From: a phage
Reading direction: 5' to 3' (one strand)
Sequence record: PZ445451.1
DNA: 64,000 nt
Shown piece after piece: positions 5,978 to 59,592 of this stretch. The translations under genes and the position numbers were made by a program. Position 1 is the first letter of the stretch, and each line of letters opens with the position of its first letter. The notes below the pieces were generated by a model, which did no database searches, was not told the DNA's origin, and saw only the letters and a program-made list of their open reading frames with translations.

Positions 5978-6052
5978 CTTGCTTTATTTCTTCTGTTAAC
6001 TTATAGTTATCGCGTAGGGCAAACAATTTTAAACGGTAAACGAGGAATCACC

Positions 6053-6436
6053 ATGAGCAATATCATCAACCTGGCAGCGACTGTAAACGGTAAAGATTTT
6101 AACGGCGCTGTAGACCGTGATCCTATGTGGTGCTTATCAGTGTTTAAAGGCGACCTGGTTGAAGTTAGAACAACCGAAGGCTATAGCGATGATTATAAAT
6201 GCGAGATCCATTTACATAACTGGTACACGGGGAAAACTTATGCGCTGAATCACGCATTTATCGGGAAAATTGAATATCGCGAAATGATCGACGAAGAAAC
6301 GGGGCAAGATTTTAGCGATTATGTTTATATCCGTTCAGAAACATTAGCCGAACGCTTGATCGAGAAAATGAAAGCAAAAAATAAAATTAATTTAGCTCAT
6401 TGGCTTGATATAACAAATGATCCGGCTTACAAGTAA
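6053..6436 (+). CDS. hypothetical protein (127 aa)
   Basis: Track ORF; CGAGGAATCACC RBS. Confidence 0.6.
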   Translation: MSNIINLAATVNGKDFNGAVDRDPMWCLSVFKGDLVEVRTTEGYSDDYKCEIHLHNWYTGKTYALNHAFIGKIEYREMIDEETGQDFSDYVYIRSETLAERLIEKMKAKNKINLAHWLDITNDPAYK

Positions 6437-6451
6437 ATAACATTTCACACC

Positions 6452-6478
6452 AGGGCGCACAAAGCGCCCTTTCTTTTT
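6452..6478 (+). terminator. rho-independent terminator
   Basis: AGGGCGC-ACAAA-GCGCCCT stem followed by TTCTTTTT. Confidence 0.65.
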
Positions 6479-6566
6479 ACCTAAATAAAGATGATAGCTT
6501 TTACCTATCAAAAACGTTCACCGAAAAAAGTGAATAGATCGCGGTATCGAGCTAATCAAGGAGCAG

Positions 6567-6707
6567 ATGAACAACCATACCATGAAGATCATAAGGCGCT
6601 TACAACGTGTTTTAGACCGCTTATTTTTAATTTCTCAATGTAACTATCGGGCAAAAACAGCCTTTTTCTTGTCTTTCCTCTTAAATGATAATCATTCTTA
6701 TTTATAG
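6567..6707 (+). CDS. possible small protein (46 aa), not in track
   Basis: ATG 6567 after CAAGGAGCAG RBS; 3' end overlaps a Fur-box-like repeat. Confidence 0.25.
   Translation: MNNHTMKIIRRLQRVLDRLFLISQCNYRAKTAFFLSFLLNDNHSYL
6684..6700. promoter_or_regulatory. Fur-box-like motif AATGATAATCATTCTTA (direct-repeat copy 1)
   Basis: Matches the core of the enterobacterial Fur consensus GATAATGATAATCATTATC; repeated at 6742-6758. Confidence 0.35.
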
Positions 6708-6739
6708 CTGATTATTTATGCAATAAACTGCATAATGCA

Positions 6740-6757
6740 ATAATGATAATCATTCTT
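6740..6757. promoter_or_regulatory. Fur-box-like motif ATAATGATAATCATT (15/15 to consensus positions 2-16)
   Basis: Exact 15-mer match to the Fur consensus core. Confidence 0.4.
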
Positions 6758-7512
6758 AACTTATGACCATCTAACCTATAAAATAATAAGTTATCTAACT
6801 AAATTAAAACTAATTATCCCACCTTTATTTATAACTTACTTTTACTATCTCATTGATAACCTTATATTAAACAACAATAACCAATATAAATCATTACTAA
6901 GCTAACTATAATCTATCTAACCCTTAAAACTATAACTATAATCTATCGAATTGTTGCACAAAGTAACTATTAAATTGTTAGTAACTTTACTAAATAATTA
7001 ATATCCTATCTATTTATGATCTAATCTTTACCTTACTATCTATTACCTAAATAACCATTTCATACAGAAATTATTTCATACAATAACTATAACAAGAAAT
7101 ATAATTCGCAAGCGTATCATTAGCAGCCTATGCCGGACACATAGGCGGCTAATAATAACGCAACTACACACCCCACATAATAACCATCACCGATAGTTAT
7201 TATTTGTGCTTATGTAGCTTGCAACAATTGCAAGCGCAACAATATACATGGTATATTGTATCCCTTACATTGTTGCGGTGCGTTATTATTAGCTAATGTT
7301 TGGAACATTGGCTATAATATAAGCTACATATAATAAGCTATACAATAATAAACATAATGAATAATGACACTGATGATCATAATGCGCCACCTTCCAGGGG
7401 GCGCTATGTGAACACAAAGAAATCTTTCTTGTCAAGAAAAATATCACCATTATTGCGCAAAATTATTTATATCTGAACAGATGATTTTTCATACTATTGC
7501 CCCCTATAGTAT

Positions 7513-7546
7513 CCCTATTTGTTGTAATGTATTCCCCTATTTGTTG
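7513..7546. repeat. direct repeat CCCTATTTGTTG x2
   Basis: 12-mer at 7513-7524 and again at 7535-7546. Confidence 0.5.
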
Positions 7547-7619
7547 AGCCTACTCTCTTAAAAGCGCAATAAATTAGAATTATCTTGATTTTTAGGTAGT
7601 TTTATAGTATAGAAAATAT

Positions 7620-7638
7620 GCAAATGATAATCATTATC
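7620..7638. promoter_or_regulatory. Fur-box-like motif GCAAATGATAATCATTATC (17/19 to consensus)
   Basis: TGATAATCATTATC is an exact 14-mer match to the 3' part of the Fur consensus. Confidence 0.4.
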
Positions 7639-7805
7639 AGCTATCTTCCACAGGTGGCACTATTTCACGCCAGATCATTTCATTTGGCAAGGTGTATATA
7701 GATGTTTAGAAATGCCAAGCCATTGATTTACTTAGAATTTATCTGTTTTGTTGTGAGTAGTGCCTTTCTTGCTCAGAAAATAATCAAAAGTCTTATAAGT
7801 CATTG

Positions 7806-7833
7806 AATGATAATGCAAATGATAATTATTCTC
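7806..7833. promoter_or_regulatory. overlapping GATAAT-hexamer array (Fur-box-like)
   Basis: AATGATAATGCAAATGATAATTATTCTC; two overlapping partial Fur-like sites. Confidence 0.3.
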
Positions 7834-7955
7834 ATTGATATTTGAGGGGGACGGTCGGCAGAAATCGGGGGCGCTAAAAATCGCGTTAAGCACCTCTCGC
7901 AAGCGAGCAGTATTTTGCGGCAAGTTATTGATATTATTGGCTTTACGCTTATGGA

Positions 7956-8063
7956 AAGGGGGTGTGTCGAAATAAATCGGGTATACCGGAAAATTTTTGT
8001 GGCATAGATATTTATTTGTCTATATTATGTACAAAGGGGTGTGTTAAAAATAATAGGTATATA
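7956..8063. repeat. pair of ~30 bp direct repeats (iteron-like) AAAGGGG(G)TGTGT..AAATAA..GGTATA
   Basis: Copy 1 at 7956-7987, copy 2 at 8033-8063, inside a 1.8 kb AT-rich non-coding region. Confidence 0.45.
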
Positions 8064-8292
8064 TAGAATAATTGATAGGGAAATCCTATACTAATCCCTC
8101 CATTAATGATGTTCCTAGGTTGCTGTTCTTGTAACAGATGAAAAGACGCTGTATGATGTGTGGCATGAGACGTAAATTTATAAGATGCAAATAATGCTTG
8201 CATTGAATAGAAATGTCTGTATAGTGGTTTGCATACCGCGCACGACGCGTTTCCATTTTCAATAAAATGTTAGCATTATGGGGAGGTAGAAA

Positions 8293-8754
8293 ATGAGACA
8301 ACTATCTATACTGGAAGCACATGTGCAATGTGTTGCAGATTATGTCAAAGAACACTCAAGTTTGTTGGATGTAACCTGTGCAGTGCAAAATGATGTAGGT
8401 ATTGTCTGTGTGCGACATATCTTATCTGAAACTCGTTATGAAGTATTTCGTGCCAAGTTGTTTGGATGTGATCAAGTGCATGTAAACTTCTTGGATTCCA
8501 ATTTTCGTTATGCTTTAGAAAATATTGATGATTATCTTCCTTGCTCTCCGACCGGATATGTGATGATAGCAGCAAATGAAGTAACACCAAACAACAGTGA
8601 GCGGGAAACTTTGTTACGGAAGAAAATACGCCAACTGCAAGTGTTGAATGAACTGAAAGAAGAGATTGAAAAAGAACTGAAAGAAGATTTTGGTATGCTT
8701 CCAAAAGACGCTTTGAAATGGTTTGATGAACTAGGAGAGGAAAGTTATGAATAA
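8293..8754 (+). CDS. hypothetical early protein (153 aa); paralog of the 14507-14758 product
   Basis: Track ORF; GGGGAGG RBS; HSSLLDVTCAVQNDVGIVCVRHILSETRYEVF resembles HTSLLKVMVVVKDGIGQVNVQHVLSDTVYNVF. Confidence 0.65.
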   Translation: MRQLSILEAHVQCVADYVKEHSSLLDVTCAVQNDVGIVCVRHILSETRYEVFRAKLFGCDQVHVNFLDSNFRYALENIDDYLPCSPTGYVMIAANEVTPNNSERETLLRKKIRQLQVLNELKEEIEKELKEDFGMLPKDALKWFDELGEESYE

Positions 8755-8923
8755 AGAAACTACTGTGTACTTAGTAACAAAGAATACCCCAGGCTGGAGC
8801 CAATGCAGCACTGTCCCTTACAAGATCTGTGCAACATTAGAACTAGCACAACGTGCAGAAGCAGAAGTGAATGCCATGCAATACAGCTATGGTGAAATCA
8901 TTCCTTTTACTCTTGAACAATAA
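8747..8923 (+). CDS. small hypothetical protein (58 aa), not in track
   Basis: ATG 8747 overlapping upstream stop; GAGAGGAAAG RBS. Confidence 0.4.
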   Translation: MNKETTVYLVTKNTPGWSQCSTVPYKICATLELAQRAEAEVNAMQYSYGEIIPFTLEQ

Positions 8924-8934
8924 GGAGTTGTGTA

Positions 8935-9387
8935 ATGTTTGAAATTGGTAAAGTGTATCGTTTTAAAAACCCATCTTATATCCGTAAGTTTGCTAACGTG
9001 TCTGAGTGCAATAGCAGGATTGCTTCTTTTTTAGGTGATTCATATTTTCGTGTATTAGATGTGGATGATTGGTATGGTGTCACTGCTTTGCAATCCTTAG
9101 CAGGAGAACAAGAAATTATCGCTCAAAATGAAGGAGACTTTCTTCAGTGTTACACGTTGCTTGCAAAAAGTGAGTTTGAGTATTTTGTAGAAGTCTTAGA
9201 GGAAGCACCAAAAAGTAAACACGAAGAGAAATACCTGCTTGTAGTGGATGGAGTTCCGATCATGGAAACCATCTCCCGTGAGGAAGTTGAAAAAGAGGCG
9301 AAACGTTACAAGCTGGATCGTACACAGAGTGTAGTTGAAGTCTATTCTCTTGTTGGTGTTGCAGATATTAGTGTGAACATCGTATAA
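8935..9387 (+). CDS. hypothetical protein (150 aa)
   Basis: Track ORF; AAGGAG RBS. Confidence 0.65.
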   Translation: MFEIGKVYRFKNPSYIRKFANVSECNSRIASFLGDSYFRVLDVDDWYGVTALQSLAGEQEIIAQNEGDFLQCYTLLAKSEFEYFVEVLEEAPKSKHEEKYLLVVDGVPIMETISREEVEKEAKRYKLDRTQSVVEVYSLVGVADISVNIV

Positions 9388-9390
9388 TAT

Positions 9391-9603
9391 ATGTGTAATG
9401 ACAGATACATTCTTCGTGTATCTGATAAGTCTCCTATGTTTGACTGGCGGGGTTGGTGGCTACTAGCTCCGATGCAAGGTCTGACAGACGTGGAAAAGGA
9501 GGCTTATGTGTATACAAAAGAAGAGATAGAAGATAGCCTTTATTTGACAGATAACATTAAGAATGGTATCTTTGAGTGTAAATTGAAAGGAGAGGAAGAA
9601 TGA
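9391..9603 (+). CDS. hypothetical protein (70 aa)
   Basis: Track ORF; tightly packed in operon. Confidence 0.5.
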   Translation: MCNDRYILRVSDKSPMFDWRGWWLLAPMQGLTDVEKEAYVYTKEEIEDSLYLTDNIKNGIFECKLKGEEE

Positions 9604-9899
9604 CTATTACAGAAAAACTGCGCTGTATTGCAAAGCAAAGTGGAGAAGGTTTATGGTTTCCTATTGAGGAAATTATTCAGGACTGTTATGATCAGGCTAA
9701 GACTGGCAAATACTCCAAAGCATTTAAACCATCTGTTTTCGGTTTGGATGACTATCCAAAAAATGAACAAGCAAAGAAACGACAAGTTGATTTGATTGAT
9801 CTTGCTATGGAAGCACTACGAGAGCATGGGCTTAGTAAGGTGTATGCTTTAAACACCAAAGAGGGCTTTGTAGATTCAGTGATCGTAGACTGGTATTAA
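9600..9899 (+). CDS. hypothetical protein (99 aa)
   Basis: Track ORF; ATGA start/stop overlap. Confidence 0.6.
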   Translation: MTITEKLRCIAKQSGEGLWFPIEEIIQDCYDQAKTGKYSKAFKPSVFGLDDYPKNEQAKKRQVDLIDLAMEALREHGLSKVYALNTKEGFVDSVIVDWY

Positions 9900-9908
9900 G
9901 GAGAAGTC

Positions 9909-10277
9909 ATGCAAGAAAATAATAAAGTGTGTAGCATGAAAAGCAGCCCATATTTGCTACAATTTTATGAGTGGTGGTTAGAACAAGAAGATACAAACTT
10001 TAGCAAAAAGCATTATGGTCTTTGCACGTGTCTTGTAGACTTCTTATACAATATTGCTTGGATAAAAGATGTTGAGAATGTATCAAAGCTCCAATCCTCT
10101 GTACGAGAGGAAATGAAGGAACAATTTAAGAAAGCGGGTTTGAACCATTTACATCCGTTTAATACGGATTTCTCGCACTACTTTACGGAAACAGAGCTAG
10201 GCATTGCACACCTTAATAAAGAACGTGTACAATGGGTGATTGATCGTATTCGTGATATGGAGGAATACAATGGTTAA
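9909..10277 (+). CDS. hypothetical protein (122 aa); paralog of the 10901-11485 N-terminal region
   Basis: Shared LLQFY..FSK..LHPFN..HLN.KR..WV motifs. Confidence 0.6.
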   Translation: MQENNKVCSMKSSPYLLQFYEWWLEQEDTNFSKKHYGLCTCLVDFLYNIAWIKDVENVSKLQSSVREEMKEQFKKAGLNHLHPFNTDFSHYFTETELGIAHLNKERVQWVIDRIRDMEEYNG

Positions 10278-10488
10278 GTTTAAAACTTTCTGTGCAATCA
10301 CTGTTTGTCTTATTCTTGCATACGTGTTATTCTCTGGTATCGTTCGTTTAGGTGAGTATATGGCAAGAGAAGCTCGTGAAAGTGCAGCTAAAAAAGAACA
10401 GTGTATTGTGTTCAAGCATCAAAGAGATGCTGAAAAGTTTCTCGCACTTGATTGCAATCGTTATGTATCATATCAAATGTATGAGTAA
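10270..10488 (+). CDS. small membrane-anchored protein (72 aa); paralog of the 14982-15206 product
   Basis: Track ORF 10240-10488 trimmed to ATG 10270; N-terminal TM helix; KEQCIVFKHQRDAEKFL resembles KEKCIILKHKRQAEDFL. Confidence 0.55.
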   Translation: MVKFKTFCAITVCLILAYVLFSGIVRLGEYMAREARESAAKKEQCIVFKHQRDAEKFLALDCNRYVSYQMYE

Positions 10489-10497
10489 GGAGAATTT

Positions 10498-10722
10498 ATG
10501 GTAAAACGTTTGGAATGGGATGCGTGTACTGCTCACGCTTGTCACTGCGATATTGTTGAAGATCCTAATGGAGAAATGGTGTATTATGAAGATTACGAAG
10601 CATTGCACAATGCTGTGATTGCTTTACTGGATGATATTAGCTCACGCTATCCAGGACAACAATTCACGTGTCCACATATCCAACTATTAGCCGAACTTAC
10701 GGAGTATCCAAGTGTTCCATAA
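10498..10722 (+). CDS. hypothetical protein (74 aa); paralog of the 15867-16130 product
   Basis: CDIVEDPNGEMVYYEDYEALHNAVIAL resembles CDIVPDPEGDYVLLADYNKLEERLLAV. Confidence 0.55.
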   Translation: MVKRLEWDACTAHACHCDIVEDPNGEMVYYEDYEALHNAVIALLDDISSRYPGQQFTCPHIQLLAELTEYPSVP

Positions 10723-10723
10723 T

Positions 10724-10891
10724 ATGGGTGTCCCTGAACAACTGCTCTTTATTGTAGGATTAGTAGGCTTATTGGCGGCTGGCGCTAAAGCCGCTTCTCA
10801 CACGCATCACATAATGTTAAGATTTCTATTCCTGCTCCCTTCTATCCTCGTACTACTAGTCATACTGATCGATAACATTTTGCATAATTAA
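10724..10891 (+). CDS. small hydrophobic membrane protein (55 aa), not in track
   Basis: ATG 10724 one base after upstream stop; two hydrophobic segments. Confidence 0.35.
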   Translation: MGVPEQLLFIVGLVGLLAAGAKAASHTHHIMLRFLFLLPSILVLLVILIDNILHN

Positions 10892-10900
10892 GGAGAGGTT

Positions 10901-11485
10901 ATGAGTAAAATTATACCAAGCAGTTATGAATTATTACAGTTTTATGTGTATTATATAGACTGGGTTAGTAGATTGAATGTTAAAGACAATGCGATGTTTA
11001 GTAAAAACATCTGTTTAACAGAAAGTATCTTCCGTTACTGGCACACAGGTAGAAAGTGTACACACAGTGAAGCTATGCGCATTGTAGGAGAATATCTGGA
11101 GCAATTGCAAAAAGCAGAACTTCCTGTCCTTCACCCATTCAATGAATCTAAAGAAGAATTAGAACAAGAATGTAGGGAAGGTAAGTGCCATTTGAATGAA
11201 AAACGTATCGAATGGGTGAGGCAACGTTTAGCCGATGCAGGGAATCCTCCTAGTGACTCTGACTATACGTGGTATGATGTAGAGGGTTTAGTTCAAGGTT
11301 TTGAGGCTTGTGCTATAGGTAATACCAACTTTGCCAAAGTTTTATGCGAGGTTTATGATCTGGCAGATAAAATCCGAAATCACGGATGGAAACAAGAGCA
11401 TAAAGAATCATATGAACGCCTTGACAAGATTTTCAAACAGATCTATTCTAACCACAAAGAGATGTTCCAAATGGAGGATGTGTAA
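10901..11485 (+). CDS. hypothetical protein (194 aa)
   Basis: Track ORF; AAGGAGAGG RBS. Confidence 0.65.
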   Translation: MSKIIPSSYELLQFYVYYIDWVSRLNVKDNAMFSKNICLTESIFRYWHTGRKCTHSEAMRIVGEYLEQLQKAELPVLHPFNESKEELEQECREGKCHLNEKRIEWVRQRLADAGNPPSDSDYTWYDVEGLVQGFEACAIGNTNFAKVLCEVYDLADKIRNHGWKQEHKESYERLDKIFKQIYSNHKEMFQMEDV

Positions 11486-12171
11486 TGAAAGAGATTATGT
11501 TTGAAGGGCATCGTTACGAAGTTCCAGACAATGCAAATTTCATGGCTCGTGATATCACTGGAGATGTGTTCTGGTTTGAAGATGAACCTGTGTTTTCTTC
11601 GAACAAACACTGGTTTTCACAACAATCTTCTTCGGAAAATATGACTTTTGGTTATGTAGAACCTAAAGTACGTTGCAAAGCAGCTTCTTCTTTGGTAAAA
11701 ATTTCCCAAGATGACCAAGAAAATACTCAAGATGTTGTTAGTGCACTACTGAAGTACATTGCAGAACTTGAAAATAAAATTAAAGAAGCAGAAACTAAGG
11801 TGAAAGCACGATCAGCAATCATTGAAGCTATGTCTGAACGTATTTTAGAACTAGAAGATTTGTGTGGAGAGGCTTATCAAGTGGTTGGGGCACTGGCTTG
11901 TGAAGCACAAATGTTTGAAACTTCAGAACAAGTTTCACATATGTTAGATAATTTGAGTGAATGTAAAATGATTCATGATGATGTATTGCCATTTTGTTGC
12001 AATGTTAACAAAACAGAGCAAACAGAAGATTCAGAAACAGTTTATGTTCCGCTAATGTGTGTTCCAGATCATCTGAAAGGTGTATTCTCTTGTAAATGGT
12101 CACTGTTGAGCGTTAATAATTGTGGTGAAAACTATTCTGCTAACATTGAATTGCTAAAACACGTTAAATAA
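11485..12171 (+). CDS. hypothetical protein with central coiled-coil (228 aa)
   Basis: Track ORF; start overlaps upstream stop. Confidence 0.65.
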   Translation: MKEIMFEGHRYEVPDNANFMARDITGDVFWFEDEPVFSSNKHWFSQQSSSENMTFGYVEPKVRCKAASSLVKISQDDQENTQDVVSALLKYIAELENKIKEAETKVKARSAIIEAMSERILELEDLCGEAYQVVGALACEAQMFETSEQVSHMLDNLSECKMIHDDVLPFCCNVNKTEQTEDSETVYVPLMCVPDHLKGVFSCKWSLLSVNNCGENYSANIELLKHVK

Positions 12172-12181
12172 GGAGAGTGAT

Positions 12182-12586
12182 ATGTGGTCTGTTAAAATCA
12201 AATATAATGCGCAGTATTATGGTGGAAAACCTTACGAAGTTGTTATTTGTGATTGTATCTCTGAAGAAGTTGCACAGCTTTGTGGCGCTGGTGTTAGTGA
12301 AGCTATGAACAAAATGCATAACTCGACTGTGCGTTACCTGGATCAAGATATTCCAGAAGATGTAAATGACTATGCTTACGAAGTTATTTATAGTGAAGGT
12401 AAGAAGCTCTCTATTGAAGATGCACTTAAAGCACTACCTGCTATGTGCAACCCGACACCAGAAGCAGTTAAAGAGATTTTACCAGAATCCAACCCCGATG
12501 AATATGCTGCTATGGTTGCTTCAGACATGTGGAATCTCTGTCGAGAAACTATGATTAAAAATCTGGTGGAAATGGCACATGAGTAA
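12182..12586 (+). CDS. hypothetical protein (134 aa)
   Basis: Track ORF; AAGGAGAG RBS. Confidence 0.65.
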   Translation: MWSVKIKYNAQYYGGKPYEVVICDCISEEVAQLCGAGVSEAMNKMHNSTVRYLDQDIPEDVNDYAYEVIYSEGKKLSIEDALKALPAMCNPTPEAVKEILPESNPDEYAAMVASDMWNLCRETMIKNLVEMAHE

Positions 12587-12797
12587 AACGCACTTTATAC
12601 ATCCGTTTGATCCAAGGAACAAGGCGGTTATACACCGCCGTTGGACTGAAACGCGCATTACAAAATGTCCTGTGCCAGCAGCACAGGAATATAACAAAAC
12701 ATATAAAGCAGAATTTGTGGAGTACACCTTTGTAAATAACAAAGGGAAGGAGGTTTATGTTCCAGAATACTGCCTTTGGATAAAATGGGAGGAATAA
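12579..12797 (+). CDS. hypothetical protein (72 aa)
   Basis: Track ORF overlapping its neighbours. Confidence 0.5.
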   Translation: MSKTHFIHPFDPRNKAVIHRRWTETRITKCPVPAAQEYNKTYKAEFVEYTFVNNKGKEVYVPEYCLWIKWEE

Positions 12798-12964
12798 TGC
12801 AAACATTTTTTATCGACAAGTTCAATAAAAATATGAACACGTGGATGGCAACATTCACTATGCAATTTGCATCGTTTAAAGAAGCTCAAGAATGGTGCGA
12901 TCAACACAAGGATTTTGACTTTTACTATCAAATCAATCCGAATCTCTCTCCAGAGGAGAAATAA
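12797..12964 (+). CDS. hypothetical protein (55 aa)
   Basis: Track ORF 12776-12964 trimmed to ATG 12797 (GGAGGAATA RBS). Confidence 0.45.
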   Translation: MQTFFIDKFNKNMNTWMATFTMQFASFKEAQEWCDQHKDFDFYYQINPNLSPEEK

Positions 12965-12965
12965 T

Positions 12966-13310
12966 ATGTTGGCTGATATTGAAATCCTTATGTACCGACA
13001 AGGTATGATCAAAATGTGGCTAGATTCTTTTAGCAACATATACTGCACAGTACGATCAGCAGACGAGCGTAAAACGCTTATTTTATCTGCTATTGTTGAT
13101 AAACAACGTTTCTTCAAAGAAATTTTGCAAACAGGCTTCTCCGATGCAGGAGTAGAGATTGCAACGCTTAGTCTTGGAGTGCTGTCTTACTTGGAATCCG
13201 TTGTTTTATATGTCTTCTCTTTAGAAGAACACTTGCAATTTGAAGCATTAAAACTTATCTTAGATGCTGCAATTGACATAGAACAAAATCGAATTGATTC
13301 TTTTGAATAA
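12966..13310 (+). CDS. hypothetical protein (114 aa)
   Basis: Track ORF 12867-13310 trimmed to ATG 12966. Confidence 0.55.
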   Translation: MLADIEILMYRQGMIKMWLDSFSNIYCTVRSADERKTLILSAIVDKQRFFKEILQTGFSDAGVEIATLSLGVLSYLESVVLYVFSLEEHLQFEALKLILDAAIDIEQNRIDSFE

Positions 13311-13326
13311 AAATAAGGAGGAAACT

Positions 13327-13785
13327 ATGCAAGAGGTTAAACATTATCCACATGGTCGTAGTTTTGTAGCTGTATGGCATGTTCCTGCTCGTAATGAACT
13401 ATTTTGTGCATCTTTTCATTACAAAGATGGACAATATTTCACCTATGACGAGACGATGGATGATTTTATCCCAGAGTGCGATCATGGGTATACACCAATG
13501 TTCTTTAAACGTATGAAAGCTCGTTTCTTCGTTACAGATGTTGATGGTGAACCTACTTGGCACATCGAAGAAGATTGGCAAGATTCTGTGGATATTAAAG
13601 AAGCCCCAGAATGGGCTACATTACTGGTACACGTCAAAACCCCTACTCTTGACGTTATGGCGTGGGTTAATCATGATGATACCCATTACCAATACATAAA
13701 TGGTAGCACAGAGATTTCTGGTGAGATTATTGGTCGTTGGAAGCCTACGAATCAGGTTGCTATTGTCGGGTATAAGACAGTATAA
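13327..13785 (+). CDS. hypothetical protein (152 aa)
   Basis: Track ORF 13294-13785 trimmed to ATG 13327 (AAGGAGGAAACT RBS). Confidence 0.65.
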   Translation: MQEVKHYPHGRSFVAVWHVPARNELFCASFHYKDGQYFTYDETMDDFIPECDHGYTPMFFKRMKARFFVTDVDGEPTWHIEEDWQDSVDIKEAPEWATLLVHVKTPTLDVMAWVNHDDTHYQYINGSTEISGEIIGRWKPTNQVAIVGYKTV

Positions 13786-13786
13786 T

Positions 13787-13981
13787 ATGAAAAAGAGTGT
13801 AGATTGGGATGATTTATCCGATTTTGAAAAATGGTTCTTAGGTAGTGGTTGTTATGCAGATGGGGATCTCGAAAGAGATCCTTCTGGAAACTACACTATG
13901 CCATTAACCCAAGGTTTTTATGAGTGCTGGTGCGCAGCACAAAACAACGTACTGAATAAGGAGACAACACAATGCAATTAA
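13787..13981 (+). CDS. hypothetical protein (64 aa)
   Basis: Track ORF 13700-13981 trimmed to ATG 13787. Confidence 0.5.
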   Translation: MKKSVDWDDLSDFEKWFLGSGCYADGDLERDPSGNYTMPLTQGFYECWCAAQNNVLNKETTQCN

Positions 13982-14211
13982 ACATCGGACAACCAATTTT
14001 TGATGCAGATACTGGTCAATATGCAGTGATTGTTGCTCGTATGAGCGGTGATGACCTTATTGTTTCAGAACTACTCGGATCCGATCCGCAACTGCGCGTA
14101 GTATGTGACCTATATCTTCGAGACGAAAGTGATCGCATTGCACTGAAAGAAGATGGTATGCTCTACTACACCTGGACTAGAGATCCTGGGGTAACGGAGG
14201 TAGAGGTATAA
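13972..14211 (+). CDS. hypothetical protein (79 aa)
   Basis: Track ORF; AAGGAGACAAC RBS. Confidence 0.55.
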   Translation: MQLNIGQPIFDADTGQYAVIVARMSGDDLIVSELLGSDPQLRVVCDLYLRDESDRIALKEDGMLYYTWTRDPGVTEVEV

Positions 14212-14510
14212 TGGTAAGGAATAGGGGTTTACATAAAAGAAGACACCTTACTTACTGGCATCGTAAAGTACATGAACCTGTATCAAAGAAAGAATGGCAA
14301 TATCTGCCTTATGGGAAGGAGCGAAGAAAGTATTTGTTAGCTCATTTAAGGGTACATGGTTCTCTTCCTGTTAACAGTAAGTGGCAATTGCAAACAGCTT
14401 ATGACGAAGATATGAAATATCTGTTAAAGAGAGGCATTATTTGCCTTGTTAAGATTGGACGATGGAAATCTCGTCAATCTTATATCGTACTTAAACAGGA
14501 GAAACGATGA
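14211..14510 (+). CDS. basic protein (99 aa), possibly nucleic-acid binding
   Basis: Track ORF; Lys/Arg-rich. Confidence 0.55.
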   Translation: MVRNRGLHKRRHLTYWHRKVHEPVSKKEWQYLPYGKERRKYLLAHLRVHGSLPVNSKWQLQTAYDEDMKYLLKRGIICLVKIGRWKSRQSYIVLKQEKR

Positions 14511-14758
14511 ATATCAAAGATGTTGTAGCATACGTAGAAGATGAAGTTAAAAACCATACAAGTTTACTGAAAGTAATGGTTGTGGTTAAAGATGGTATTG
14601 GACAAGTAAACGTACAACATGTCTTATCTGACACTGTATATAATGTGTTTGAATGTAAAGAAACACCTCATGGAGTACGTGTGGTTTATATTGATAACAA
14701 TTTCAAAGAATGTGTGAGACATACCTTAGAAAATGAACTAAGGATCACAATCTTATGA
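14507..14758 (+). CDS. hypothetical protein (83 aa); paralog of the 8293-8754 product
   Basis: Track ORF; see paralogy note at 8293. Confidence 0.6.
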   Translation: MNIKDVVAYVEDEVKNHTSLLKVMVVVKDGIGQVNVQHVLSDTVYNVFECKETPHGVRVVYIDNNFKECVRHTLENELRITIL

Positions 14759-14928
14759 GTTATTATGTTGTACCTTATGCCAATAAGTGGAGAGTAAGAG
14801 AAACTTGTTTTCTATTCTCCTGGTGGGCTACGTTCGGAGATGGTTGTGGGAATGATACAGGAAAGCCTGTAGAGTACGACACAAAAGAAGAATGTGAACA
14901 GTGGATAAAATTAACACAAAGATGTTGA
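14755..14928 (+). CDS. small Cys/Trp-rich protein (57 aa), not in track
   Basis: ATG 14755 overlaps upstream stop (ATGA); frame runs to TGA 14926-14928. Confidence 0.4.
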   Translation: MSYYVVPYANKWRVRETCFLFSWWATFGDGCGNDTGKPVEYDTKEECEQWIKLTQRC

Positions 14929-14953
14929 CACGATCTTAACTTCTTGTTAGTAT
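14925..14953 (+). promoter_or_regulatory. sigma70-like promoter (TTGACA-17-TAGTAT)
   Basis: Exact TTGACA 14925-14930. Confidence 0.45.
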
Positions 14954-14981
14954 CAATGTGTACTAACGATAAGGAGGGTTT

Positions 14982-15206
14982 ATGAAGTCTGTAAACAAGT
15001 TGCAACAATTTTTGTTATCAACAGCAATCTTTTTGCTTTTGTTGATTGGTATTCTGTATGGTGCATCTAATTTGTACAATCTACATAATGATGTAGAACA
15101 GAACAAAGAGAAGTGCATCATTCTGAAACACAAGAGACAAGCAGAAGATTTCTTAAAGAATAAGTGTTACAACTACATTGATTATGAGGAGACAAACAAT
15201 GATTAA
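14982..15206 (+). CDS. small membrane-anchored protein (74 aa); paralog of the 10270-10488 product
   Basis: Track ORF; AAGGAGGG RBS; N-terminal TM helix. Confidence 0.6.
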   Translation: MKSVNKLQQFLLSTAIFLLLLIGILYGASNLYNLHNDVEQNKEKCIILKHKRQAEDFLKNKCYNYIDYEETNND

Positions 15207-15441
15207 AGAATTAGGTATGCGAGTATACAGTGAGTGGACTCCAAGCAATGGCCCAGGAGTTGTTGCAGCTAAATGTATCAATGGTCGTATTGAGTACCTG
15301 GAAGGGTATGAAGATAATGAAGAGTTAGTAGATTATGCTAAATCTTTTATTGAAGATGATACAGACTTTATTGTGTTATATGATACAGGAGAGTTAGAGT
15401 ATGGATATGATGGAGATGGGGATATCTTTGAACTTCAATAA
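15199..15441 (+). CDS. acidic hypothetical protein (80 aa)
   Basis: Track ORF 15178-15441 trimmed to ATG 15199. Confidence 0.5.
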   Translation: MIKELGMRVYSEWTPSNGPGVVAAKCINGRIEYLEGYEDNEELVDYAKSFIEDDTDFIVLYDTGELEYGYDGDGDIFELQ

Positions 15442-15648
15442 GAGTAGTAAGTAAGGTATAAAGAGTATATAGTTAGTTATAGAGTTAGTAACATTACATA
15501 TACTCTTTCCATGTATAACATGGAATATTCTCTACCTCGCTATCGCTCGGTATATAAGATTAGGGTAGCATGTTTTTTACGAAAAGTAAAACTGTTTATA
15601 CCGATTGATAGCAGGTTTTTAATAGATTCTATCTATGAGGAGTAGAAA

Positions 15649-15867
15649 GTGTACAAATTATATAAAGGAAAAGATAAGTTTACGGGTAATACATCTGGTT
15701 TCTATGTAACACCACGTGGTGTTGCTGTGTTCGATTGGATCTCTGGTACGCCAGATCGTGAAATGATCTCTCTTGTAAAACTGTCAGAACAAGATTATAC
15801 TTACGGTGACATTACAACATTCTATTCTCGTGCAGAAAATCCAAAACTGATTGCGGAGTGGGAATAA
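15649..15867 (+). CDS. hypothetical protein (72 aa)
   Basis: Track ORF; GAGGAG RBS. Confidence 0.55.
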   Translation: MYKLYKGKDKFTGNTSGFYVTPRGVAVFDWISGTPDREMISLVKLSEQDYTYGDITTFYSRAENPKLIAEWE

Positions 15868-16130
15868 TGGTTACACGATATGATTTAGAGGTGTACAGCC
15901 AAGGTGCTGCTGGTCAATGTGATATTGTACCAGATCCAGAAGGAGACTATGTTCTTCTTGCTGATTACAACAAGCTAGAAGAAAGACTTCTGGCTGTGTA
16001 TGCTAAAGAGAACAAAACAATCTGCCCTTATTGCAATGGAATGGGTTGGGTGGTTGCAGATGTTGGACAAATGTATGAATGTGTACCGTGTAAAACCACA
16101 GGATTTATTGAAAAGGATACTGACAAATGA
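15867..16130 (+). CDS. hypothetical protein (87 aa); paralog of the 10498-10722 product
   Basis: Track ORF 15858-16130 trimmed to ATG 15867. Confidence 0.55.
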   Translation: MVTRYDLEVYSQGAAGQCDIVPDPEGDYVLLADYNKLEERLLAVYAKENKTICPYCNGMGWVVADVGQMYECVPCKTTGFIEKDTDK

Positions 16131-16375
16131 CTGTAGCAGATAAAATGAGAGAACTGGCAGAAAACGCAGAACTTAACAAAGCAAAAGAGAGTTTACAAAG
16201 CATCTACGCGTATATTGAAAGAGCAGCTAAAGATGGAGACAGAGAAGCTGCTATATACACGCTTTATCCAACTTTCGTAAAAGTTAGCTTGGATGCTGAA
16301 GGTTTTTCAACTTTTATTGATACAGAAACATCTCATTACGATGAAAACTTTACTCGAATAGTTATTCGATGGTAA
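16127..16375 (+). CDS. hypothetical protein (82 aa)
   Basis: Track ORF; ATGA overlap. Confidence 0.55.
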   Translation: MTVADKMRELAENAELNKAKESLQSIYAYIERAAKDGDREAAIYTLYPTFVKVSLDAEGFSTFIDTETSHYDENFTRIVIRW

Positions 16376-16390
16376 ATTTCTGATATTTAT

Positions 16391-16449
16391 GCGCCCTGGC
16401 TACCTGGGCGTAATAAATTCAGCTTATATTTGATCCGCGCCTTCGGCGC
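16391..16449 (+). repeat. two GC-rich hairpins in an intergenic spacer (no U-tract)
   Basis: CGCCC...GGGCG (16392-16410) and GCGCC-TTC-GGCGC (16437-16449). Confidence 0.4.
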
Positions 16450-16480
16450 TTAGGCAAAGCCACGCCACACAGGAGAGTTT

Positions 16481-16891
16481 ATGTTCAAATGGTTAAAAGA
16501 GTTTCTAACATCTTTGGCAGAACCTAAGCAAGATGTTATTAAAAGCTCTATCACAGGAAAACCGCTTGTTATAGTTACAGGCGGCTTTGGTCATGGGTTT
16601 TCTCTTAAACAAACAGATATAGGTTTACAGGGATCTTTGATTAGTTTTAGAATCACCCAACTAGGAGATAATAGACAAACAATCTTAGACCTTTTCAATG
16701 GGGAATTTGATGACTATTTATCTAAGAGTGGTAAAGAACGTCTGATCGAGCATATAAAACACCGCTATGAGCATGGTGGTTACTACTTAGATACAAAACG
16801 TAATGCACAAGGTGATCTTGACATAGTTCGTATAGCGTGGGATAATGAATTTAAAACTAAACTTGGTAAACTTCTGGAGGAGTTATGGTAA
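16481..16891 (+). CDS. hypothetical protein (136 aa)
   Basis: Track ORF; CAGGAGAG RBS. Confidence 0.65.
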   Translation: MFKWLKEFLTSLAEPKQDVIKSSITGKPLVIVTGGFGHGFSLKQTDIGLQGSLISFRITQLGDNRQTILDLFNGEFDDYLSKSGKERLIEHIKHRYEHGGYYLDTKRNAQGDLDIVRIAWDNEFKTKLGKLLEELW

Positions 16892-17067
16892 ATATTAAAA
16901 CAGGTGATATTGTACGTCTTGCCAGTGAAGAAATGTTAATGACTGTAATGGTATCTACTTACGATACTTGCGAAGTGGTGTGGTTTGATGTTAATGAGCA
17001 ACTACAGAAAGCTACATTTGATAAACGTATGCTTCGTAAAGTTGAAGAAGTGAAGGAGGAAGAATAA
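16885..17067 (+). CDS. hypothetical protein (60 aa)
   Basis: Track ORF; GGAGGAG RBS. Confidence 0.5.
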   Translation: MVNIKTGDIVRLASEEMLMTVMVSTYDTCEVVWFDVNEQLQKATFDKRMLRKVEEVKEEE

Positions 17068-17068
17068 T

Positions 17069-17281
17069 ATGGGAATGTTGCTTCGTGTTTTTGTGTTTCT
17101 TATGTTCTGGATTATCGTTGGTAACGGTATTGTATTTTTGATTTTTCCTGAAGTGATGACAGGTAATGAAAATAAGGCAGTGCCTTACATTATGCTTATC
17201 GGTTACGGTATTGGTACACTTGGACTACTGTTTGCTGATTGGTTAATCAATACTTTGTTCTCTAAGTACAGGAACAACTAA
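17069..17281 (+). CDS. integral membrane protein (70 aa, two TM helices)
   Basis: Track ORF; hydrophobic throughout. Confidence 0.55.
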   Translation: MGMLLRVFVFLMFWIIVGNGIVFLIFPEVMTGNENKAVPYIMLIGYGIGTLGLLFADWLINTLFSKYRNN

Positions 17282-17282
17282 T

Positions 17283-17555
17283 ATGTCGGAAAACTTACCT
17301 AATGTTTTCTTTTGTTTTGTAGATTGTGTTACACAAGAAATTATAGTTGACGAAGAAGGTATGTTTACTTATTTTGCATCTGAAGAAGAGGCAAAACTAT
17401 CAGTTATGAAATGTATAAGCCAACTATCAGTACCTGCTGTCAACAGGTTCGGTATTGCACAGGTGTATAAAACAGTAACAGAGTTTACACCAGATCGAAA
17501 ACTAACTTTTCTTAACGTTCACTTTGTTTGTAAGTTTAGTGAACTACGACATTAA
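17283..17555 (+). CDS. hypothetical protein (90 aa)
   Basis: Track ORF. Confidence 0.55.
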   Translation: MSENLPNVFFCFVDCVTQEIIVDEEGMFTYFASEEEAKLSVMKCISQLSVPAVNRFGIAQVYKTVTEFTPDRKLTFLNVHFVCKFSELRH

Positions 17556-17568
17556 ATCAGGAGTAAAA

Positions 17569-18168
17569 ATGAAAGAATATTGGAGTGGTGAGAAGGGCTT
17601 ACTAAAGCCAGGAATGCTTTTACGAGTAAAGAACATGTTGATCACACAAGATTACATAATGCCTAATCCTGGAGCATTAGTAGAATTCCTTACTGCGCGA
17701 GATCAACCTGGGATTGGTGAAATGTGGATTGTAACGTGGATATCTCTCGATGGTAAATTGCGCGTTGCTCCTATTGACCCAAAACACTTAGAATCTCCTT
17801 ACGCCAGTATTGATCCTCGGATCATAGATTTGGCTAGAGTTTATAAAGCTCGGACTGGTGTAGAATTAAATGTGGAAATTTTAAATCAATGTATTGACTT
17901 CTTACCGGAAAAAGTGCATAATGCTCAACAAGAAGGTAACGGTTTAGAAGTTGTTCTTCTTAATGATGGGATGTTCTCTGGTTTGGCATCCGTAGATTTT
18001 CCAATAACATTAAGATTGTTACCTGGAGAATATGTACTGGATGAAGATACTATTGCTATATCCTCTAAAATTTTAGAACTCATTCCAGGTGCAAGGTGTG
18101 TTGGTGATACATCTTCCTTGCTGTTTACTCTGAATGAAGAAGCCATTATAGTTAAAAAGGAGAAGTAA
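17569..18168 (+). CDS. hypothetical protein (199 aa)
   Basis: Track ORF 17524-18168 trimmed to ATG 17569 (CAGGAG RBS). Confidence 0.65.
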   Translation: MKEYWSGEKGLLKPGMLLRVKNMLITQDYIMPNPGALVEFLTARDQPGIGEMWIVTWISLDGKLRVAPIDPKHLESPYASIDPRIIDLARVYKARTGVELNVEILNQCIDFLPEKVHNAQQEGNGLEVVLLNDGMFSGLASVDFPITLRLLPGEYVLDEDTIAISSKILELIPGARCVGDTSSLLFTLNEEAIIVKKEK

Positions 18169-18273
18169 ATGATGACGTTTATTGTTGGTGTTGTTGTTGG
18201 TTATTTTGGTCACAAGTACCAAGATGTTATCATCGATAAAGTTGACGAAGTAATCGAAAAATTTAAACACTAA
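18169..18273 (+). CDS. small hydrophobic peptide (34 aa), not in track
   Basis: ATG 18169 right after upstream stop; AAGGAGAAG RBS. Confidence 0.3.
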   Translation: MMTFIVGVVVGYFGHKYQDVIIDKVDEVIEKFKH

Positions 18274-18323
18274 TTTTTAAAAGGCTGTACTGCTGTGCAG
18301 CCTATCTTTCAAAGGAGAGTAAA

Positions 18324-18497
18324 ATGTTCAAAGATACCCATTATAAATGTGTACATTGTGGTAAATCTTTTGGTGATCACAAAGCTAAAACATTCAATTG
18401 TCCACGAAAAGGGCGAGGTAGCTTTAAAGGTTTTAATCCATCCCACGTTTATTCTCCCAACTACGAGAAACCAGAAGAAGAAAAATTTGTAATCTGA
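18324..18497 (+). CDS. small zinc-ribbon protein (57 aa; C-x2-C ... C-x-R-K-G)
   Basis: ATG 18324 after AAAGGAGAG RBS; preferred over the overlapping track ORF 18295-18492, which starts at a GTG inside a hairpin and has no RBS. Confidence 0.45.
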   Translation: MFKDTHYKCVHCGKSFGDHKAKTFNCPRKGRGSFKGFNPSHVYSPNYEKPEEEKFVI

Positions 18498-18506
18498 GGA
18501 GGCAAT

Positions 18507-18794
18507 ATGGAACTAGTGCAAGAAGTTTATGAAAAACTGAAAGAAGAGAATCTTGATTGGCCTGAACATGCTCTTATTGTCGTCAAAGATACTAATGGTG
18601 AAATAAAATTCTCAAGTGTAAGTGAAGATGATGTTGTTTTAAGTCCTACAGGATATTATATGAGAGGTGTTACGTGTCTATTCAACACCAAAGTGTATCC
18701 TGAAATTAAACTTAGTTACGGTGAACCTGATCATCCAGAAATCGTTACACGTAATGAATATGAAAATTATTATTTTGCTCGTGAAAGCAAATAA
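18507..18794 (+). CDS. hypothetical protein (95 aa)
   Basis: Track ORF; GAGGAGG RBS. Confidence 0.6.
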   Translation: MELVQEVYEKLKEENLDWPEHALIVVKDTNGEIKFSSVSEDDVVLSPTGYYMRGVTCLFNTKVYPEIKLSYGEPDHPEIVTRNEYENYYFARESK

Positions 18795-18802
18795 GGAAAA
18801 CT

Positions 18803-19126
18803 ATGCAAAAAATAAACACTGGTTCTCGTCCTAAACAGAAGCAAACAAAAGCAAGGGTATCTTATGTTGACAACTCTTGTTATAATTTCAAAAATGTTAA
18901 AGAAGTTATCATTGATGAAAAAGAAGGTTTGATTCACATTTCATCTGAACGTTTGAAAGGTAGTGTTACTCTTCGTGAGAATGTATCTATACCTATGAAA
19001 TTTGTGGCTACACTCTGTGTTGATAAACCAGATGTTGTTAACTACTATGTGTTCCGTGATAGTTGTATTTCATTACATAATAAGATTTTTAAATCTTCGC
19101 ACGTTAAAACAAAACACATTGTATAA
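18803..19126 (+). CDS. hypothetical protein (107 aa)
   Basis: Track ORF; AAGGAAAAC RBS. Confidence 0.6.
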   Translation: MQKINTGSRPKQKQTKARVSYVDNSCYNFKNVKEVIIDEKEGLIHISSERLKGSVTLRENVSIPMKFVATLCVDKPDVVNYYVFRDSCISLHNKIFKSSHVKTKHIV

Positions 19127-19132
19127 CACATA

Positions 19133-19156
19133 AACCCGCTTCGGCGGGTTTTCTTG
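19133..19156 (+). terminator. rho-independent terminator
   Basis: AACCCGC-TTCG-GCGGGTT stem followed by TTCTTG. Confidence 0.65.
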
Positions 19157-19200
19157 TATATGTGTTTTTATTTGTCTTAGCCTAAATAATAGGAGGTATT

Positions 19201-19422
19201 ATGTCTGTAGTTGTAGAAGGTAGTATTGGTTTCTTAGTAGATAACCCTCACCCTTTCGTGGTTAAGGTTCATATTCAAGAAAAGGTAAGCAACAATACGT
19301 GGTTGTGCTTGTTAGATAGTAAGATACACTCTTATACAGAGGTTTATCTTCATACTTGGCAAATTGGTACGATAACAGCAGAGGATGAATTGATAATTGA
19401 ATTATATGAACGAGATCTATAG
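19201..19422 (+). CDS. hypothetical protein (73 aa)
   Basis: Track ORF; AGGAGG RBS. Confidence 0.6.
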   Translation: MSVVVEGSIGFLVDNPHPFVVKVHIQEKVSNNTWLCLLDSKIHSYTEVYLHTWQIGTITAEDELIIELYERDL

Positions 19423-19502
19423 ATGACTTTACTAGAGAGTATCGTAGTGTTAATCATCTTTATCATTGTTGTCATAGGATATTTTACAGAAGACTAAAAT
19501 AA

Positions 19503-19536
19503 AGCCCCTAGAATCGCTTCTAGGGGCTTTTGTTTG
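19503..19536 (+). terminator. strong rho-independent terminator closing the plus-strand early block
   Basis: 11 bp stem AGCCCCTAGAA / TTCTAGGGGCT, TCGC loop, T-rich tail. Confidence 0.7.
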
Positions 19537-29208: not shown

Positions 29209-29862
29209 TTAATTATCAGAGGATACTTTATCAAGTTTTTCAGAGACTGTCAATACTTTTTCTTGTGATTCTTTCATTTCTGCTAAAATACTTTCAGCTT
29301 CATCACTATCAGGATCACCAGTCAACAGCATACTAATTAGTTGCTCCTTGCTGAAGTTCAGAATATCTTCCGCTGTTAGCTCCAGTTGTTCTTCAATCTC
29401 TTCGACAAAAGTTTCACCGCCTGAAAAAGCATCTCGTAGTTTTGCAACTTCCATCGCTTCTTCTGGGGTTGCCCCAGCGTCTAAAGCTGCTAAAGCAAAA
29501 TCTGCCCCACTACCAACAGCATAGTAATCTTCAGTTAAAGGATATGCTCGCGTTGGATTATTACCCTCGTGCATATAAATTTTACCGTCTGGGTGAACAA
29601 CCAATGCCACAAACTCTTCATCTTCTTTATCAGGATCTGACTGGATCACCAAACCTGGGATTGTCTCTTGTGCTGCCTGGCACTGTAAGTTTTGTTCGAA
29701 CCAAGAAAAGAAAGTCAGGATAGAAGACAGACGTCCTGCACCACCAACAAGGTAATCCCCAATTTTACGCACTTTCTTAAAATTTAAAGTGTCTACTCGA
29801 TTACCTACTGTTACTTTACCGTCAGATAGAATTTTGTTATGTGTTGCAATAATTGTTGTCAT
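29209..29862 (-). CDS. HslV/proteasome beta-subunit-like Ntn-hydrolase peptidase with acidic C-terminal extension
   Basis: MTTIIA start (Thr nucleophile after Met removal), KKVRKIGD, GGAG and YAVGSGADFALAAL resemble E. coli HslV. Confidence 0.6.
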   Translation of the reverse strand: MTTIIATHNKILSDGKVTVGNRVDTLNFKKVRKIGDYLVGGAGRLSSILTFFSWFEQNLQCQAAQETIPGLVIQSDPDKEDEEFVALVVHPDGKIYMHEGNNPTRAYPLTEDYYAVGSGADFALAALDAGATPEEAMEVAKLRDAFSGGETFVEEIEEQLELTAEDILNFSKEQLISMLLTGDPDSDEAESILAEMKESQEKVLTVSEKLDKVSSDN

Positions 29863-31142: not shown

Positions 31143-31154
31143 GTTTGCACTCCT

Positions 31155-31175
31155 TATAAAAGGGGCTTTCGCCCC
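31155..31175 (-). terminator. GGGGC-TTTC-GCCCC hairpin terminator (works in both orientations)
   Basis: Palindromic hairpin flanked by A-run and T-run. Confidence 0.5.
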
Positions 31176-31180
31176 TTTGT

Positions 31181-35900: not shown

Positions 35901-36036
35901 TATCTTCCTCCTCTTCTTTTTCTTCCGTGTGAACGAAGCCTAAACCGTTACAATTCCAACACGGAATAAATTGTTCCATACTAACAATAAAATTCCCAGT
36001 ACCACCGCAGATAGGACAAATACTTACATCATCCAT
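35884..36036 (-). CDS. DnaJ-type zinc-finger micro-protein (50 aa; CPICGGTG ... CWNCNGLG), not in track
   Basis: Two C-x2-C-x-G-x-G repeats; ATG at 36036 (minus); stop overlaps the next start. Confidence 0.4.
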   Translation of the reverse strand: MDDVSICPICGGTGNFIVSMEQFIPCWNCNGLGFVHTEEKEEEEDNGSCH

Positions 36037-59561: not shown

Positions 59562-59592
59562 TTTAAAAGGAGGTGTTATGCATCTCCTATAT

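Follow-up and report, generated by a model that had tools for sequence, protein, structure and literature searches.

It is a general phenomenon of large lytic phages that small early or “host-takeover” genes occur as multigene families. Related phages also exchange modules with each other, as in Casjens/Hendrix-type mosaicism. Here we consider a 64,000-nucleotide stretch of phage DNA (sequence record PZ445451.1), which we will call the window, and four pairs of similar small genes within it, which we named A/A', B/B', C/C', and D/D' (Table 1). The 7.8-kb region that contains them, which begins at position 8293 of the window (record position 95393), is 100% identical to Escherichia phage PaulScherrer (Bas60, MZ501100.1), a Justusliebigvirus from the Stephanstirmvirinae, and phi92 is 98% identical.

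The array that holds these pairs resembles the small early-gene families of other large phages: its genes are small, co-oriented, tightly packed, without a database function, and at the start of the genome. Also, there are several diverged paralogs per genome, and the copy number of D varies (2-3 here versus 5-7 for phAPEC8). Unlike the more common arrays, in which a single family is repeated in tandem, here two members each of three families appear in the same order. Another difference is that the paralogs in this array have no known target or phenotype.

A preliminary description of the window interpreted the pairs as an internal segmental duplication. We found that all four pairs are homologous. 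Judging from the sequences, the members of the four families seem to have parted before the present genera of the Stephanstirmvirinae diverged. We lean towards the view that they are old paralogs that arose by several events of duplication, fusion, loss, and exchange, and not by a simple block copy. An internal segmental duplication is at best ancient and can no longer be demonstrated.

Homology of the four pairs

We aligned each pair with the Smith-Waterman algorithm (BLOSUM62) and compared the scores to 1000 shuffles per pair. A/A' scored 117 (z = 18.2, with 44% identity over 71 amino acids), B/B' scored 87 (z = 16.1, 31% identity), C/C' scored 69 over the first ~44 amino acids only (z = 9.9, 36% identity), and D/D' scored 116 over ~112 amino acids (z = 16.4). 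The shuffle means were 22-31, and for every pair, 0/1000 shuffles matched the observed score. Control pairs of neighboring genes had Smith-Waterman scores at the shuffle level. In a six-frame, all-versus-all comparison across the whole window (382 open reading frames, or ORFs), only six non-overlapping pairs passed E < 1e-3, including the A, B, C, and D pairs.

Profile comparisons gave the same four pairs. Using orthologs from related phages, we built a profile for each of the 37 array genes, and we compared these profiles with hhalign (666 pairs). The four pairs had probabilities of 100, 100, 99.9, and 94.7%, versus 10% for the best of the 662 other pairs. Similarly, every paralog matched both its own family in PHROGs (E = 1e-25 to 1e-137) and its partner's family (E = 3e-4 to 3e-17). 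The relevant families are 14944 and 27423 for A; 15662 and 23204 for B; 23083, 22955, and 23941 for C; and 2510 and 27059 for D. PHROGs keeps the partners as separate families and does not record the link between them. Nor are the paralogs mentioned in the papers that we consulted on rV5, BASEL, and “Wecvirus”.

Could the similarities reflect chance, low complexity, or convergence (such as generic transmembrane helices or cysteine motifs) instead of homology? The proteins are short, and a hydrophobic helix supplies part of the score for B/B'. But no shuffle reached the observed scores, the hhalign probabilities are far above those of the other pairs, the PHROG matches are reciprocal, and the conserved motif of B lies outside of the transmembrane helix. 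The shuffle and profile controls refute this explanation, and we give it a negligible chance of being correct. The pairings in the preliminary description therefore hold for all four pairs, with similarity well above that of shuffled controls. The motifs that it quoted are present in the alignments, and so is the N-terminal transmembrane helix that it reported in both B and B' (Kyte-Doolittle maxima over 19 residues of 2.55 and 2.41).

Two more candidate pairs were rejected. The colinear pair 9391-9603 and 14755-14928 had a Smith-Waterman z score of 3.4 but an hhalign probability of 2.5%. The other pair, 9600-9899 and 16127-16375, are both annotated in the record as “putative transcription factor” (z = 2.1, hhalign 5.5%). 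Iterative searches of the window with hidden Markov models yielded no more members of the families, except for a zinc-ribbon mini-protein of 50 amino acids (35884-36036 on the - strand; CxxCxGxG...CxxCxGxG), which is homologous to the C-terminal half of C' (BLASTP E = 9e-4).

Table 1. Coordinates of the paired genes and of other features in the window (aa, amino acids)
Feature	Coordinates	Strand	Description
A (bas60_0147)	8293..8754	+	153 aa; N-terminal alpha+beta domain (aa 1-80) in common with A', and a C-terminal long-helix extension
A' (bas60_0166)	14507..14758	+	83 aa; A-type N-terminal domain only
B (bas60_0153)	10270..10488	+	72 aa; predicted single-pass membrane protein, with transmembrane residues 7-25
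B' (bas60_0168)	14982..15206	+	74 aa; membrane-protein paralog of B (predicted transmembrane helix)
C (bas60_0154)	10498..10722	+	74 aa; N-terminal module of ~45 aa (CDIVxDPxG...DYxxL), then C-type tail (SRYPGQxFTCPHI)
C' (bas60_0172)	15867..16130	+	87 aa; C'-type N-terminal module (aa 1-45) fused to a zinc ribbon (CxxCxGxG...CxxC, aa 47-87)
D (bas60_0152)	9909..10277	+	122 aa; single D domain
D' (bas60_0156)	10901..11485	+	194 aa; D domain (aa 1-116) and C-terminal extension
Gene between A' and B'	14755..14928	+	Resident gene; no homolog in the first set
Gene directly 5' of C'	15649..15867	+	Resident gene; homologs are upstream of a zinc-ribbon gene in relatives
Conserved 54-bp junction	8182..8235	+	Left edge of the exchanged A module
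Small-gene array	8293..19422	+	37 co-oriented genes (bas60_0147-0183); holds all eight paralogs
Bidirectional terminator-like hairpin	19501-19530	both strands	Perfect 13-bp stem; closes the + strand array
Region without a convincing ORF	7451-8292	n/a	~840 bp, directly 5' of the first array gene

Origin of the paired genes

Three of the four pairs are colinear. If the 37 array genes are numbered in order, then A, B, and C are numbers 1, 7, and 8, while A', B', and C' are numbers 20, 22, and 26, and all are on the + strand. If six genes were placed at random in 37 slots, then two non-overlapping blocks of up to 8 genes with the same order would be unlikely (p = 0.004). The preliminary description had placed the pairs in the same relative order, which is right for A, B, and C; D/D' is not part of the block.

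The similarity does not extend beyond the paired genes. We found no homology between the intervening genes of the two sets: no pair exceeded 10% probability with hhalign. Neither a repeat search nor a dot-plot revealed any DNA repeats that link the two segments. The dot-plot, which was one of the proposed checks, contained just two weak matches, both in coding sequence (8332-8448 with 14534-14650 at 63% identity, and 10475-10596 with 15845-15968 at 62.5%). Even within the pairs, the homology is partial: A/A' and C/C' share their N-terminal domains only, and D/D' share the D domain only.

We then compared the two sets to related phages. The Phapecoctaviruses phAPEC8, ukendt, and WPEC2 have one A, one B, and one C, which are syntenic with the first set. 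Their gene order is A, the homolog of 8935, the homolog of 9600, D, B, ..., and C, so A<B<C is found there as well, and the syntenic counterpart of B is in the D-B pair of phAPEC8. The first set is more similar to the Phapecoctavirus proteins (55-91% identity for A, 46% for B, and 59-68% for C) than to A' (44%), B' (31%), or C' (36%). The segment at 12797-15441 has no Phapecoctavirus homologs.

Phylogenetic trees (neighbor-joining with bootstrap, 45-90 aligned positions) point in the same direction for two of the families. A' is the outgroup to the A proteins of three lineages (99% bootstrap). C' groups with a gene from phiWec179 (83%), apart from the C-type proteins (81%). This 70-amino-acid gene (L012 17875-18087) is directly after the homolog of 9600, its N-terminus is 49% identical to the N-terminal module of C' (z = 9.3), and phiWec179 carries a C-type gene separately. 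phiWec179 represents the proposed genus “Wecvirus” (PMC12695924). Since C' groups with a separate Wecvirus gene, the split between C and C' predates the genera, and the position of A' outside all A proteins implies the same for A. The B tree is a star. If the duplication had occurred within the Justusliebigvirus lineage, then the copies should be each other's closest relatives; this is not what we see for A or C, and B is star-like.

The arrangement of the second set is also informative. In phiWec179, the homolog of 14755 (31136-31309) is directly before the homologs of 15649 and a stand-alone zinc-ribbon gene, so that the 14755 homolog, two copies of 15649, and the zinc ribbon form one contiguous run, with the order found in the window. 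The first of the 15649 homologs are at 29687-29902 in WPEC2 and 31299-31514 in phiWec179; in each phage, a second 15649-like copy follows, and the zinc-ribbon gene comes directly after that. In the window, A' is before 14755; B', 15199, and 15511 are between 14755 and 15649; and the C' module is fused to the zinc ribbon. Because phiWec179 keeps 14755, 15649, and the zinc ribbon contiguous, we conclude that the members of the second set sit at three distinct places among resident genes. There is no single insertion point for a second block. Thus, the synteny comparison suggested in the preliminary description has a mixed outcome: the order A<B<C recurs in Phapecoctavirus, but the genes of the second set are interleaved with genes that are ordered as in Wecvirus.

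Across 50,697 phage records, IMG/VR, and a collection of 5.8 billion proteins, we found A', B', and full-length C' in Justusliebigvirus-type genomes only. The full-length matches for B' (56 records) were all from such genomes. Within the 5.8 billion proteins, the A and B families were confined to Stephanstirmvirinae-type contigs of ~140-155 kb, and the scans of IMG/VR gave Stephanstirmvirinae-type contigs only. Two further contexts (P0221 and P0223) either resembled Phapecoctavirus or could not be used because of their short length.

As stated above, we are inclined to view the pairs as old paralogs with a piecemeal history. Genes or modules would have been duplicated anciently, and the copies would have been retained differentially among the genera. 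Modules may then have been fused (a helical tail to A, a zinc ribbon to C', and a domain that is separate elsewhere to D'), a third D gene may have been lost except for a remnant at 8182-8210, and A may have been swapped with that of a phAPEC8-like Phapecoctavirus by recombination at the conserved 54-bp junction. Several points weigh against this view. The colinearity and clustering of A-B-C and A'-B'-C' are improbable under random placement, and a single block event would be a simpler explanation for them, unless the three families are held together by selection. The B tree gives no resolution, and all of the trees are neighbor-joining trees from few positions. Also, if the second copies evolved faster after a duplication within the lineage, then the splits of A and B could look older than they are.

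In an ancient form, the model of the preliminary description would be one duplication of an ancestral A-...-B-C cassette in an ancestor among the Stephanstirmvirinae, after which the intervening genes were replaced, the 3' breakpoint fused C' to a zinc-ribbon gene, and the second block was lost in Phapecoctavirus. This would explain the common order and strand of three pairs within short blocks, and it fits with their similar divergence (31-44% identity) and with the order of the genes in Phapecoctavirus. A breakpoint within C would naturally yield the chimera of C' and the zinc ribbon. But besides the lack of homology between the intervening genes, the second set is split by genes ordered as in Wecvirus, which would require three insertion points or several rearrangements. 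Furthermore, the C'-type module is elsewhere in Wecvirus, right after the homolog of 9600; many Justusliebigviruses lack A, which in the window is a lateral import; and D/D' is outside of the block. We consider this scenario unlikely. What stands of the proposed segmental duplication is the paralogy and the clustering of three colinear pairs, while the intervening genes and DNA, the trees, and the interleaving all speak against it. Alternatively, recombination with a diverged relative might have placed a second cassette downstream of the resident one, in which case the pairs would be xenologs from an “allo-duplication” and not duplicates made within the genome. Exchange of a module between genera did occur in this region, for A (see below); the distances among the A proteins and among the C proteins are smaller than their distances to A' and C'; the two sets lack DNA similarity; and 12797-15441 has no counterpart in Phapecoctavirus. 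However, no donor lineage with A'-B'-C' turned up in the phage records, IMG/VR, or the protein collection, and Wecvirus has the interleaved resident genes as well. We find this lateral scenario quite improbable. Overall, the history of several separate events is the explanation that we prefer, and the combination of old paralogs, domain fusion, and mosaic exchange is the expected, ordinary pattern for large lytic phages.

Exchange of A and the domains of B, C, and D

A' covers just the first ~77 residues of A; the rest of A comprises a linker and then a long helix. In the AlphaFold 2 model of A (predicted local distance difference test, or pLDDT, of 79.5), a helix, four strands, and another helix are followed by a helix at residues 101-133. 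A matches phrog_14944 and cross-matches phrog_27423.

A is missing from many Justusliebigviruses, including JohannJBalmer, muut, alia, and outra, which keep only A'. Among the genomes listed, the Justusliebigviruses without A have no A-family match other than A'. In JohannJBalmer, the sequence is 96% identical on either side, and a D-family gene and two other genes are found in place of A. Positions 8231-8758 of the window (528 bp, which is A and 62 bp 5' of it) are 93.75% identical to phAPEC8 8393-8920, and the flanks of these two phages cannot be aligned. In the tree, the A protein of PaulScherrer is nested within the clade of phAPEC8 and WPEC2 (100% bootstrap). Given the phAPEC8-like patch, the absence of A from JohannJBalmer, and the nesting, we conclude that A was exchanged between genera. 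In summary, A', B, B', C, C', D, and D' are found across the genus, while A is accessory and exchanged.

The left edge of the exchanged module is a conserved 54-bp junction, which is 87-93% identical to JohannJBalmer (L003 3420-3473), phAPEC8 (L002 7696-7749), and ukendt (L004 11242-11295), with different flanks. In these phages, the junction comprises the 3' end of a D-family gene and an intergenic spacer. The body of this gene is missing from the window, where only a remnant of this third D gene is left (8182-8210). At the right edge, 8747-8923 encodes 58 amino acids and has 8 non-synonymous changes versus 1 synonymous change relative to JohannJBalmer; the protein is 90% identical to one from the Phapecoctavirus ukendt. 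This gene is probably part of the recombination junction and not under positive selection.

Mosaicism in phages is also cited in PMC12695924. A fits this pattern, as a sharply bounded 528-bp patch that closely matches a phage of another genus and lies beside a short conserved junction. But the mosaicism accounts only for A, and not for the order that A', B', and C' have in common with A, B, and C.

B and B' share a C-terminal motif, which in B is KEqCIvxKHxRxAExFLxxxC. The residues that are invariant in the alignment are E43, C45, K49, H50, A54, E55, F57, L58, C62, and Y68.

C is 59-70% identical to the N-terminal half of C proteins of 148-151 amino acids from Phapecoctavirus and Wecvirus. We considered whether C might be a Lar-like restriction alleviation protein (PF14354 or phrog_3592) and rejected this: the hit to phrog_3592 has E = 7.7e-4 only, and there is no Pfam match. 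PF14354 appears only for the mini-protein at 35884-36036, which is not related to C, and at 17.9 bits versus a cutoff of 28.6. The zinc-ribbon half of C' is 60-69% identical to the stand-alone gene of WPEC2 and phiWec179 (64-65 amino acids), and a metagenomic lineage (L010) has a similar gene (63% identity) near its homolog of 15511. With its CPYCNGMG...CVPCKTTG, C' is reminiscent of the DnaJ-type CXXCXGXG zinc finger (PF00684) and other small zinc-ribbon proteins (such as Anti-TRAP, PF15777). But it is below the Pfam cutoffs (15.9 bits for PF00684, versus 32.7), it has only one unit of two CxxC motifs, and it lacks a J domain.

The proteins D and D' belong to an old family that is multi-copy and phage-specific. 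Both match phrog_2510 (E <= 1e-17 for each), and both contain the signature of this all-helical domain of ~105-120 amino acids, LxxFY...GLC...PFN...CHxNxxRxxWV. The invariant residues in the alignment are L16, F19, L38, L78, P83, F84, R106, W109, and V110. The AlphaFold 2 model of D is a five-helix bundle (pLDDT of 79.2 and predicted template modeling score of 0.74). No match to this fold was found in PDB. In BFVD, all of the matches to D are uncharacterized phage proteins; the clear structural counterparts (template modeling scores of 0.6-0.75) come from many different phages of Proteobacteria, several of which have multiple copies. Residues 120-193 of D' match phAPEC8 14334-14555 (gp042), which is a separate gene that adjoins the D copy gp041. 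A profile search against 1.84 billion representative proteins gave 1978 clusters (at 50% identity) of D-family proteins with E <= 1e-3, or 1058 clusters with E <= 1e-10. Most of these proteins have 100-120 amino acids, and many carry two or three domains in tandem. We sampled ten members of the family and found no Pfam domain in any of them. There are 5-7 copies of D in the Phapecoctaviruses, with 7 in phAPEC8 (L002 7022-19350), and ~9 in phiWec179 (L012 14128-29875), including a tandem triplet at 14128, 14510, and 14865.

Setting, selection, and predicted roles

The genes of the array mostly abut or overlap, and all are on the + strand. We presume that they are expressed early, given their position, size, and co-oriented packing beside a non-coding left end. 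A scan for sigma-70 promoters was no better than shuffles (54 sites versus 53.6 expected), and the six larger intergenic gaps in or just after the array showed no common repeated motif. Near the second set, the best sigma-70-like site is TTGACA-17-TAGTAT with a TG (14925-14953). The end of this site is within the 53-bp gap 5' of B', which ends a 6.6-kb run of gapless genes and is the first gap there to exceed 16 bp. Because of this gap, B' may start a new transcription unit.

The stretch at 7451-8292, without a convincing ORF, might serve as a promoter, an origin, or a terminal repeat. It is 96% identical in JohannJBalmer, and a 22-nucleotide direct repeat, ATGCAAATGATAATnATTnTCA, is found within it at 7618 and 7813. 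The G+C content around it is low (0.34 for 6001-8000). The GC skew changes sign at ~20000, where the genes turn to the - strand.

Elsewhere in the window, there are 15 tRNA genes at 59486-62200 on the + strand (two each for Met, Leu, and Ser, and one each for Lys, Tyr, Asn, Thr, Gly, Gln, Pro, Phe, and Ile). On the - strand, there is an RmlD-like gene (dTDP-4-dehydrorhamnose reductase domain, 32105-32935) and a gene similar to RmlB or GDP-mannose dehydratase (34377-35366); these are distant paralogs of each other, from the short-chain dehydrogenase/reductase family. They fit with the “putative dTDP glycosylation machinery” that the BASEL paper described in phi92-like phages. Finally, the window spans the end of the deposited linear record. 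Because 63326-64000 is identical to positions 1-675 of the record (i-spanin/o-spanin), 63325/63326 is the record boundary, and the two sides are not contiguous as deposited.

The preliminary description also proposed that these genes are typical substrates of arms races between phages and their hosts. We computed dN/dS (the ratio of non-synonymous to synonymous substitution rates, by the Nei-Gojobori method) between the window and three other Justusliebigvirus genomes. Pooled over the array, dN/dS was 0.11-0.12. The values were 0.00-0.03 for C, 0.03-0.08 for C', 0.06-0.13 for A', 0.10-0.11 for D', 0.07-0.15 for B', and 0.28-0.46 for B, which is the least constrained. For D the range was 0.01-0.54 (with 0.54 from 7 substitutions), and for A it was 0.39-0.53 (from just 3-5 substitutions); across the eight paralogs, the values above 0.3 rest on 3-13 substitutions. 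With dN/dS of 0.00-0.54 for the eight genes, we saw no diversifying selection on this timescale, and the proposal of an arms race is not supported. Purifying selection on both copies of every pair implies that they are functional and presumably non-redundant genes.

Searches of Pfam, NCBIfam, and PDB sequences with these proteins gave nothing above the thresholds, and the PHROGs of the A, B, C, and D families are all annotated as “unknown function”. Based on their position, size, and class of fold, these are most likely small, early-expressed binding proteins, each of which has a binding partner from either the host or the phage, and the paralogs most likely differ in their targets. A and A' would be soluble proteins with a predicted alpha+beta domain, which in A is joined to an oligomerizing helix. 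B and B' are predicted to be membrane-anchored, with a two-cysteine domain at the C-terminus. C and C' might use a 45-amino-acid adaptor module to carry different effector tails, and D and D' would be five-helix bundles. A more speculative idea, which we think is probably wrong, is that A, B, and C are one functional module (a soluble protein, a membrane anchor, and an adaptor) whose order is fixed throughout the Stephanstirmvirinae and of which the Justusliebigviruses maintain two anciently diverged versions for different host targets or defense systems, with the D domain as a family that grows by tandem duplication, like a repertoire of binders or anti-defense proteins.

The D domain deserves attention: it is widespread, phage-only, and without a Pfam entry, and it forms about 2000 clusters at 50% identity. 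More broadly, these results provide a tested map of relatedness for the unannotated left-end genes of phi92-like phages (BASEL Bas60-62). This map is useful for knock-outs and anti-defense screens in these model phages, where redundancy among paralogs can mask phenotypes.

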